From a virus (taxonomy: Duplodnaviria; Caudoviricetes): DNA of 64,000 bases. Location: IMG/VR virus record IMGVR_UViG_3300025723_000017, positions 64,001 through 128,000 of that record. The stretch is one strand, 5' to 3'. Of this stretch, positions 27,808 through 43,253 are shown one piece after another. How positions within the stretch are numbered: position 1 is the stretch's first letter; each line of letters begins with the position of its first letter. Both the position numbers and the translations under genes were made by a program. The notes below the pieces were generated by a model. It was given only the letters and a program-made list of their open reading frames with translations. It searched no databases and was not told the origin of the DNA.

Positions 27808-28023
27808 ATGATTATAGTTAAAATACCACATAATGATACTCAGTTACTTGCTACTAAACGTGCCATTAAAATGAGTAATTGGTGTAAGGAAAACGGACTA
27901 GTACATAGTAAGGACTATGATTGGGCATTTAGGAATCTGTCAAATGAAATACACTTTAGATTCTATAGTGATGATCAAAGCCTAGCCACCATGTTTGCAC
28001 TATTATTTAACAAAGGCAGATGA
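27808..28023 (+). CDS. FxL[RK]W family small protein, paralogue of 27309
   Basis: WCKENGL..SKDYDW...FRFYSDDQSLATMFALLF. Confidence 0.7.
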   Translation: MIIVKIPHNDTQLLATKRAIKMSNWCKENGLVHSKDYDWAFRNLSNEIHFRFYSDDQSLATMFALLFNKGR

Positions 28024-34811: not shown

Positions 34812-35081
34812 TCAAGCGTTATTTTGCATTAGCTTTTTTAATACTGCTTTGTTGCAGTCAACCAATGTCAACGCTGTATTACTGCGTTGTTGCAATTTAG
34901 CAATGGCGTCAGCAAGTTGACCAGAGGTAGCAGTATCACTAAGAGTAGCGTAGTATAACGCATTTCTAGCGTTAAAATTGTTATGTATGTCAGCAGTAAC
35001 AACGAAAAACTGCGCACTTAAATTCTTCTTAAGACGAACAGTTGCGTACAGTGTATTCTGTGCAGAGTTTGTGTTTAACAT
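34812..35081 (-). CDS. Early hypothetical protein
   Basis: AAGCG-type leader as in the 29-kb genes; no Glu. Confidence 0.6.
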   Translation of the reverse strand: MLNTNSAQNTLYATVRLKKNLSAQFFVVTADIHNNFNARNALYYATLSDTATSGQLADAIAKLQQRSNTALTLVDCNKAVLKKLMQNNA

Positions 35082-35173
35082 TTTTGTCTACGCTTATGAA
35101 AAATTGTTTAACTTGTTACTGTAAAACTATTATACTGCCTAACTAACTAATAGTCAAGCAGTATAACATTACG

Positions 35174-42932: not shown

Positions 42933-42986
42933 CTCCTGTTGTTTACTGTATAAACATTATAACGGCAATAGTGTTGATTGTCAATA

Positions 42987-43084
42987 TGGAATCCATTGTG
43001 AGTAGGCCTCGAACCTACATGTGGTGTTTATTTCCACCGGCTCCTATCCGAGCCTATGTCTACCAATTCCATCATCACGGATTC
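42987..43084 (-). tRNA. Atypical tRNA-Leu-like RNA (6-nt anticodon loop, bulged acceptor stem, ends in CCA)
   Basis: D arm ATG-GAATTGGTAGA-CAT, GGCTC-GGATAG-GAGCC, long variable arm, GTAGG-TTCGAGG-CCTAC; own promoter 43144-43172. Confidence 0.6.
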
Positions 43085-43253
43085 TTGGGGTCATGACTTC
43101 CCAATATGGACAGGGTAATTACTCCTGTTTTCGCCATATTTATATTATACTGAGGTTTGTCTTGTATGTCAAGTCACTTACTTCATCATCGTCTCCGTTA
43201 GAGGCAGTACCGCCGGTGGGGTTCTCCCCCACCTTTATGAATGGTCTAGAAGA

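Follow-up and report, generated by a model that had tools for sequence, protein, structure and literature searches.

A tRNA-Leu-derived RNA with a six-nucleotide loop and a closed acceptor end in the early-type cassette array of an uncultured jumbo phage

Phage T4 produces two small stable RNAs of unknown function, RNAs C and D (species 1 and 2), which are encoded within its tRNA operon. The YrlA and Y RNA modules are non-decoding RNAs which mimic the elbow of tRNA and have Ro60 (TROVE) as their partner, the 5' and 3' ends of YrlA being located in the Ro-binding stem. Such tRNA-like modules have also been found in some jumbo phages (PMC7824862). In Bacillus cereus, the pseudo-tRNA known as tRNA-Other has been recruited as the tRNA-like element of a regulatory RNA, and the same work argues that inactivated tRNAs are open to recruitment for new roles (PMC3399842). 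Phage tRNAs have also been described which evade tRNA-targeting defences by means of changes in the anticodon loop (PMC10264068; PMC11555353; PARIS/AriB, PMC12409363).

The RNA described here (the focal RNA) is encoded in the window, the 64,000-nt stretch of DNA that was analysed, and the source is an IMG/VR record of 154 kb, belonging to an uncultured jumbo phage (CheckV completeness 45%), from which the window takes in bases 64001-128000. The focal RNA is located in an early-type array on the minus strand, at 31.8-46.1 kb of the window, consisting of approximately 33 cassettes. Most of these possess a sigma-70 promoter matching the consensus at 12/12 or 11/12 positions, followed by a leader of approximately 30 nt and a single small ORF. 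Only three of the ~33 cassettes are without an ORF, with promoters at 43172 (focal RNA), 34213 (RNA1 and RNA2) and 35157, the last of these cassettes occupying window positions 34816-35128 (minus strand, 313 nt) and having no SD-led ORF. Few terminators are present in the array and read-through is therefore to be expected. Elements resembling tRNA were found at only two of the ~33 cassette junctions.

The focal cassette lies between the genes of a 76-aa protein (upstream) and a 55-aa protein, each of which has its own consensus promoter. The proteins flanking the cassette have no known function and no tRNA-related protein was found nearby, with neither TROVE nor PTH2 being found in the 154-kb record (45% complete). 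Plus-strand ORFs running across the focal RNA (83 and 41 aa) gave no Pfam or PHROG match. A first-pass annotation of this DNA had described a perfect promoter upstream of the RNA, and the sequence at 43172-43144 does agree with the consensus at 12/12 positions (Table 1), transcription most likely starting near 43138-43136. As every cassette in the array has a consensus promoter, however, this promoter is no sign of selection for the focal RNA. The same annotation had placed two hairpins between promoter and RNA; hairpin 1 stands out from shuffled sequences (z = -3.2), but hairpin 2 is no better than them (z = 0.0). It was also observed that hairpin 1 pairs the SD-like CAGGAG of the cassette leader, which would keep ribosomes off this ORF-less transcript.

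Table 1. Coordinates of the focal RNA, its structural elements and the adjoining signals (window positions).
Feature	Position	Strand	Description
Focal RNA, tRNA-Leu-derived, 98 nt	42987..43084	(-)	Class-II cloverleaf, 27/27 pairs Watson-Crick
Outer helix, 5' strand	43079..43084	(-)	6 bp GAAUCC/GGAUUC, partner 42994-42989
Inner acceptor helix, 5' strand	43075..43078	(-)	GUGA/UCAC, partner 43001-42998; stacks on T stem
U8-G9 and D arm	43056..43074	(-)	19-nt word identical in canonical phage tRNA-Leu; Leu-type D loop, 3-bp D stem AUG/CAU
Anticodon-arm equivalent	43039..43054	(-)	5-bp stem, 6-nt loop GGAUAG at 43049-43044; 10-mer common to RNA2 at 43050-43041
Long variable arm	43021..43037	(-)	4 bp, 9-nt loop
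T arm	43002..43018	(-)	5 bp, 7-nt loop UUCGAGG; T54-Psi55-C56 and A58 positions kept
AAU bulge, 3 nt	42995..42997	(-)	On 3' strand between inner and outer acceptor helices
Outer helix, 3' strand (42994-42989), then CA	42987..42994	(-)	Letters CCA at 42989-42987, first C paired
Sigma-70 consensus promoter (predicted)	43144..43172	(-)	-35 = 43172-43167, 17-nt spacer, -10 = 43149-43144; 12/12 consensus match
Leader hairpin 1	43104..43139	(-)	z = -3.20, significant; contains 11-nt word common to RNA2 (43138-43128)
Leader hairpin 2	43086..43103	(-)	4 bp, 10-nt loop; z = -0.02, no better than shuffles; doubtful
-35 box of next cassette	42979..42984	(-)	Two bases past last A of focal RNA; cassette boundary, outside RNA

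Using the default settings of ARAGORN, no tRNA was called anywhere in the 154-kb record, the window included. At 97% stringency the focal RNA was the sole call in the record, reported as "tRNA-?" with a 6-nt loop and a two-base "anticodon", for which Ile/Tyr was the guess. No accepted match to the focal RNA was obtained from Rfam, with RF00005 silent at E <= 10. An identity as a C/D-box snoRNA was considered and rejected, as the weak matches in this direction trace back to GUGAUGA, a word in the U8-D-stem region. All of the parts which had been attributed to the RNA on first inspection are present on the minus strand, namely the Leu-type body, the long variable arm, the T arm, the 6-nt loop without U33 and the bulged acceptor. 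The folding energy was calculated to be -34.5 kcal/mol compared to -23.1 +/- 3.2 in shuffles (z = -3.57), and none of 200 shuffles was as good.

The acceptor and T stems of the focal RNA make up a 15-bp helix with a bulge. A K-turn at this AAU bulge was rejected, the pairs beyond the bulge being Watson-Crick. The outer helix, formed by six contiguous pairs between leader and trailer, has a chance probability of 0.0019, and six or more such pairs were found in only one of 72 canonical genes. Both the discriminator position and the C that opens CCA are taken up by this helix. Thus, the acceptor had been correctly described as ending in the letters CCA, but with its first C paired there is no free single-stranded CCA in the drawn structure. 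Everything that builds the tRNA L-shape is kept in the focal RNA and both of its working ends have been rebuilt. It had been argued that stems so intact speak against random decay; this is fair given that all 27 of 27 pairs are Watson-Crick, but the intactness of stems is weak evidence when taken by itself.

A covariance model of the family (R2) scored the focal RNA at 44.9 bits, compared to 76-88 bits for real tRNA-Leu. In the R2 alignment the body of the focal RNA aligns in full, with the acceptor and the anticodon loop failing to do so. There is no register in which the acceptor offers a 7-bp stem together with G1 and A73, position 73 being G, U or absent depending on the register chosen. 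With the anticodon stem as it presently pairs, the only single-base insertion that creates U33 (an inserted U) yields the anticodon GAU, which is not that of Leu. A shift of the register by two would allow one additional U to create a Leu(UAG) loop of textbook form, at the cost of mismatches in two of the five stem pairs. The earlier description of the RNA as non-decoding is upheld by the 6-nt loop, which lacks U33 and the family-invariant A35 position. For this reason decoding is excluded, and as far as can be judged from its sequence the focal RNA cannot decode. It is not a decoding tRNA-Leu, the defining features of such a molecule having been looked for and found to be absent. A search of the literature on 6-nt anticodon loops found nothing relevant.

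The LeuRS of the E. coli type ignores both the anticodon and the variable arm, and requires A73 and the D/T tertiary core as well as an accessible acceptor end (PMC9976931). The point made in the first-pass annotation that LeuRS does not read the anticodon is accordingly true, but the charging that it implied is unlikely, as the A73 needed by the enzyme is absent from the focal RNA and its acceptor forms part of the bulged 15-bp helix. From these established identity rules, the RNA would be expected to be a poor or null substrate of LeuRS.

The origin of the focal RNA can be traced through the 19-nt word at 43074-43056, which occurs exactly in more than 119 loci of IMG/VR. Among 97 distinct loci with this word, 73 are canonical tRNA-Leu genes (UAA 48, UAG 13, CAA 10, AAG 2). 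The remainder include six loci with introns, approximately nine that are truncated or aberrant and one that was called with a 6-nt loop (L257). The aberrant fraction among phage loci with the same D-arm word is approximately 10%, some of these having disrupted arms and others being truncated. In the cultured phages (50,697 records) only the D arm was matched, and the annotated tRNA-Leu of Bacillus phage Thrax4 and of cyanophages S-RIM32 and S-CAM9 serve as canonical comparison genes. In an alignment of 61 canonical genes, U8, G9, U33, A35 and A73 are invariant and G1 is nearly so. The focal RNA shares with canonical phage tRNA-Leu the identical U8-G9 and D-arm word, the long variable arm, the UUCGAG-type T loop and a 3' end which adjoins the next promoter. 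It differs in having a 6-nt loop, in being without U33, A35, G1 and A73, and in possessing an acceptor of 4 bp, a bulge and 6 bp rather than one of 7 bp.

The genome G012 is a close relative (78% identity in the 396-aa ATPase) with 26 tRNA genes at 1.2-12 kb, among them Leu(UAA) at L165:4672-4757 and Leu(UAG) at L165:5254-5338. The best alignment of the focal RNA was to the Leu(UAG) gene of this phage (z = 8.3), with Leu(UAA) reaching z = 4.5, and a single-sequence model of the focal RNA (R1) matched Leu(UAA) of G012 at 33.5 bits. The real Leu(UAG) gene of G012 also shows the same tRNA-then-promoter junction as the focal RNA. These alignments make the focal RNA a paralogue of tRNA-Leu genes belonging to the phage lineage itself, the UAG isoacceptor being the nearest to it. 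In G012 and G043 the tRNA cluster is located approximately 140 kb from the ATPase gene, a position that would be past the end of the focal contig. The focal RNA is located approximately 30 kb from the ATPase gene, outside the position of the tRNA cluster, which marks it as a copy that has been displaced rather than as what is left of a local cluster.

The tRNA region of G012 has further features of its own. At L165:4640-5250, a consensus promoter precedes an HNH-type ORF which appears to enter the 5' acceptor strand of tRNA-Leu(UAA), and a tRNA 3'-half fragment follows that tRNA gene, both features pointing to turnover of the tRNA cluster driven by an endonuclease. A permuted tmRNA gene was called by ARAGORN at L165:10958-11375.

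A number of other unusual tRNA-like loci were also found. Three unrelated metagenomic sequences (L075:2263-2375; L078:5659-5805, which equals L076:1831-1976; and L322, minus strand, near 2379), one of them from a viral contig of 30 kb and another from a Dehalococcoidia MAG, have the acceptor, D arm, T arm and A73 of a bacterial-type tRNA-Leu, with the anticodon arm turned into GGATAG plus an insert of 50-100 nt. These may form a family; L075 and L078 scored 47-54 bits with model R2, and an Rfam scan of L075 and L076 gave no match. Phage-type tRNA-Leu scaffolds with the exact D-arm word are present at L202:6268-6397, L315:1627-1752 and L277:4854-4990, where 45-75 nt replace or interrupt the anticodon arm, a length too short for group I introns. 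Loops of 6 nt were seen at L257:5788-5880 (UUAGUC, on a Leu body) and at L152:1942-2015 of G039 (GUUGAA, on a class-I body), both of which are found in ordinary tRNA clusters and have a normal 7-bp acceptor.

Leu-type class-II bodies with non-Leu anticodons (e.g. L233) were identified with GUU at five loci, GUG at two and AUC at one, with at least one GUU copy having G at position 73 and ending in G-CCA. They would be candidates for mis-pairing tRNAs, provided that it is the body which determines their charging. Over-long "tRNA-Ile" genes of 88-95 nt (UAU or GAU) occur at L165:6079-6173 in G012 and at L152:1578-1669 and L152:2190-2277 in G039, with a second anticodon-like hairpin in at least L165:6079-6173 and L152:1578-1669. 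The first of these, from G012, holds the 10-mer ACGGATAGGA, which it has in common with RNA2.

A direct search of ~670 kb of the five closest relatives (G005, G011, G012, G015 and G028) found no orthologue of the focal RNA, the only matches being the two genuine tRNA-Leu genes of G012. A search with the RNA model over 50 relatives gave almost no matches, its first-pass filter missing even the real tRNA-Leu of G012. In IMG/VR, the exact 16-mer of the anticodon arm was present at 12 loci, all of which were coding or chance occurrences and none tRNA-like. A pattern of the D arm, 8-9 N and GGATAG recovered no orthologue from IMG/VR, and neither did the D arm, 8 N and GGATAG from genome_contigs or the search of the 50,697 records of cultured phages. 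Relatives reached through the flanking 116-aa genes and the 474-aa gene were distant phages or fragments, with no match to the focal model or sequence. Scanning IMG/VR with the 76-aa upstream neighbour gave one weak match, and an identical 76-aa protein is recorded on 21 contigs. A motif match in G036 was rejected as a homologue, being coding DNA, as was the occurrence of ATGGCGAAAA at 116 kb in G012, which was attributed to chance. Synteny with the relatives is good up to window base 28,000, after which there are scattered matches at 30-50% identity. From these comparisons, the early region around the focal RNA is hyperplastic and not conserved. The focal RNA is known from one genome only.

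In the first-pass annotation the focal RNA had been linked to the pair of RNAs at 33.7-34.1 kb. For RNA2 this link proved to be real, with two exact words occurring in the same order in both. The word CGGAUAGGAG, which had been noticed inside RNA2 (33.8 kb), is indeed there, occurring exactly twice in the window compared to 0.01 expected. The 11-mer at the 5' start of the focal transcript (43138-43128) is also present twice in the window, compared to 0.02 expected, and together with the internal 10-mer it is found, within the 154-kb record, only in the focal transcript and in RNA2. A long hairpin followed by a tRNA-like body in a genuine tRNA cluster of G043 (L149:1411-1599) was identified as the orthologue of the module in the window that combines RNA2 with a hairpin of its own (hairpin 2 of that module), with an alignment score of 68 against 27 +/- 4.7 in shuffles. 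Part of this locus (L149:1501-1599, 20 bits) had been a candidate orthologue of the focal RNA and was rejected as such, belonging to the orthologue of the hairpin-plus-RNA2 module. The words common to the focal RNA and RNA2 are absent from the G043 orthologue of RNA2, and may reflect recent recombination within the genome.

The interpretation towards which we lean, tentatively and with a little less than even confidence, is that the focal RNA is a functional non-decoding tRNA mimic which acts in trans. In such a case it would be transcribed at once after infection from its ORF-less early cassette, and its closed ends would make it a stable, uncharged and tRNA-shaped molecule. It would then tie up a factor, from either host or phage, whose recognition of tRNA depends on shape (the elbow and the class-II arm). 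A defence nuclease directed at tRNA, or an enzyme of tRNA processing such as RNase P, would be the first candidates. It would probably work alongside RNA2, given the two exact words that they have in common. This interpretation is favoured by the quality of the fold (27/27 Watson-Crick pairs, z = -3.57) and by D and T loops that are unchanged, as well as by a closed 6-bp terminal helix that is unlikely by chance (0.0019; 1/72 real genes). The dedicated consensus promoter without an ORF, the two words colinear with RNA2 and the site outside the tRNA cluster also point in this direction. Against it stand the lack of an orthologue in the relatives and collections searched, and hence of conservation or covariation of the odd features, together with the hyperplastic nature of the region, the presence of a promoter on every cassette, the ~10% background of aberrant loci, the loss of both RNA2 words from the G043 orthologue and the absence of a tRNA-related neighbour.

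It is less probable, while still to be taken seriously, that the focal RNA is a dead paralogue, a copy of tRNA-Leu which was moved into the early array by cassette-shuffling recombination, lost its loop and acceptor end and has been carried passively. A singleton without an orthologue in the relatives or collections searched, lying in a region of fast turnover, is what such a history would leave behind. Of the phage loci of tRNA-Leu type ~10% are aberrant, whether through a 6-nt loop (one locus), disrupted arms (several) or truncation, and a tRNA remnant lies beside Leu(UAA) in G012. The leader still has a degenerate SD, as in the protein cassettes, and the single U missing from the canonical Leu(UAG) loop in the shifted register fits a simple lesion. 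However, the body has not decayed, all 27 pairs being Watson-Crick and both the D-arm word and the T loop being unchanged. The 6-bp outer helix would have needed matched changes on both sides (chance 0.0019), and the anticodon stem, which would have two mismatches in the ancestral register, pairs perfectly in the new one, a pattern that looks like re-fitting and not like drift. In addition, junk is quickly shed by phage genomes. Of the features that mark a pseudogene, descent and the loss of decoding and charging features were found, but unconstrained decay (broken stems, lost tertiary nucleotides) was not. Were the focal RNA a dead copy, it would be a record of how the hyperplastic early regions of giant phages relocate and wear down tRNA genes, and it would be a warning that "stems intact" alone is no proof of function.

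A role in cis seems improbable. Here the tRNA shape would be a cleavage handle of the RNase P/RNase Z type, cutting read-through transcripts between the 76-aa and 55-aa genes, and plant mitochondrial t-elements (PMC1920247) are a precedent for processing signals of this tRNA-like kind. Read-through is expected in an array with few terminators, the real tRNAs of G012 are positioned directly between ORFs and the next promoters in the same layout, and the elbow and acceptor/T helix, the parts which RNase P reads, are those that were kept. Yet a cut is not needed for the expression of flanking genes that have consensus promoters of their own, only two of the ~33 junctions carry tRNA-like elements, and both the leader/trailer pairing and the paired CCA would be expected to hinder bacterial RNase P.

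That the focal RNA is a working decoder is very hard to credit, whether by reason of one base dropped in the assembly (the anticodon then being GAU with the stem as it now pairs, or Leu-UAG after the shift of register) or by way of unconventional decoding with a 6-nt loop. In favour of this reading, the loop does contain the triplets UAG and GAU, ARAGORN guessed Ile/Tyr and 6-nt-loop tRNAs do occur in other phage tRNA clusters (L152:1942-2015 and L257:5788-5880). Against it, restoring a base leaves the acceptor unrepaired (no 7-bp stem, G1 or A73), the Leu(UAG) register has 2/5 stem pairs mismatched, and with the stem paired as at present U33 can come only from an inserted U, which places GAU on a Leu body.

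If the focal RNA is a working mimic, the phage would have disabled both ends of its own tRNA-Leu and sealed the termini, giving an inert decoy at the start of infection. This would bear on how phages meet tRNA-targeting immunity, and would do so with an RNA that is small and easily synthesised. A broader and unlikely version of the same idea is that the focal RNA, RNA1 and RNA2 are three early and strongly promoted mimics, which would jointly serve as decoys, drawing off a host factor that recognises the shape of tRNA (e.g. a tRNA-directed immune nuclease). They would then be part of a wider, undescribed phage habit in which the tRNA-Leu scaffold is rebuilt at the anticodon arm (L075, L078, L202, L277, L315, L322).

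When compared with the described systems, the focal RNA would resemble RNAs C and D of T4, compared here by description only, as small stable phage RNAs which are made with or beside tRNAs, those of T4 lying inside the tRNA operon unlike the focal RNA. With YrlA and Y RNA it has in common that of a non-decoding RNA mimicking the tRNA elbow, but the 5' and 3' ends of the focal RNA are at its acceptor end. An identity of the YrlA type was rejected, with no TROVE gene in the record (45% complete) and no Rfam match. In the phage tRNAs that evade host defences, as in the focal RNA, it is at the anticodon loop that the main difference from ordinary tRNA lies, and the context is one of conflict with the host. 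Those tRNAs nevertheless keep a 7-nt loop, a normal acceptor and decoding, whereas the focal RNA, on the features given above, cannot decode; the decoy role is one that we infer for the focal RNA and is absent from the papers on defence evasion. By analogy, the focal RNA would work most like the pseudo-tRNAs that have been recruited to other roles, as in the case of tRNA-Other (PMC3399842). Both are tRNA-derived genes outside translation, transcribed with extended 5' and 3' sequence. The B. cereus gene is chromosomal, flanks a genomic island, is iron-regulated and is backed by genetic evidence, and its counterpart here, read from sequence alone, is placed in the early cassette array of a phage.
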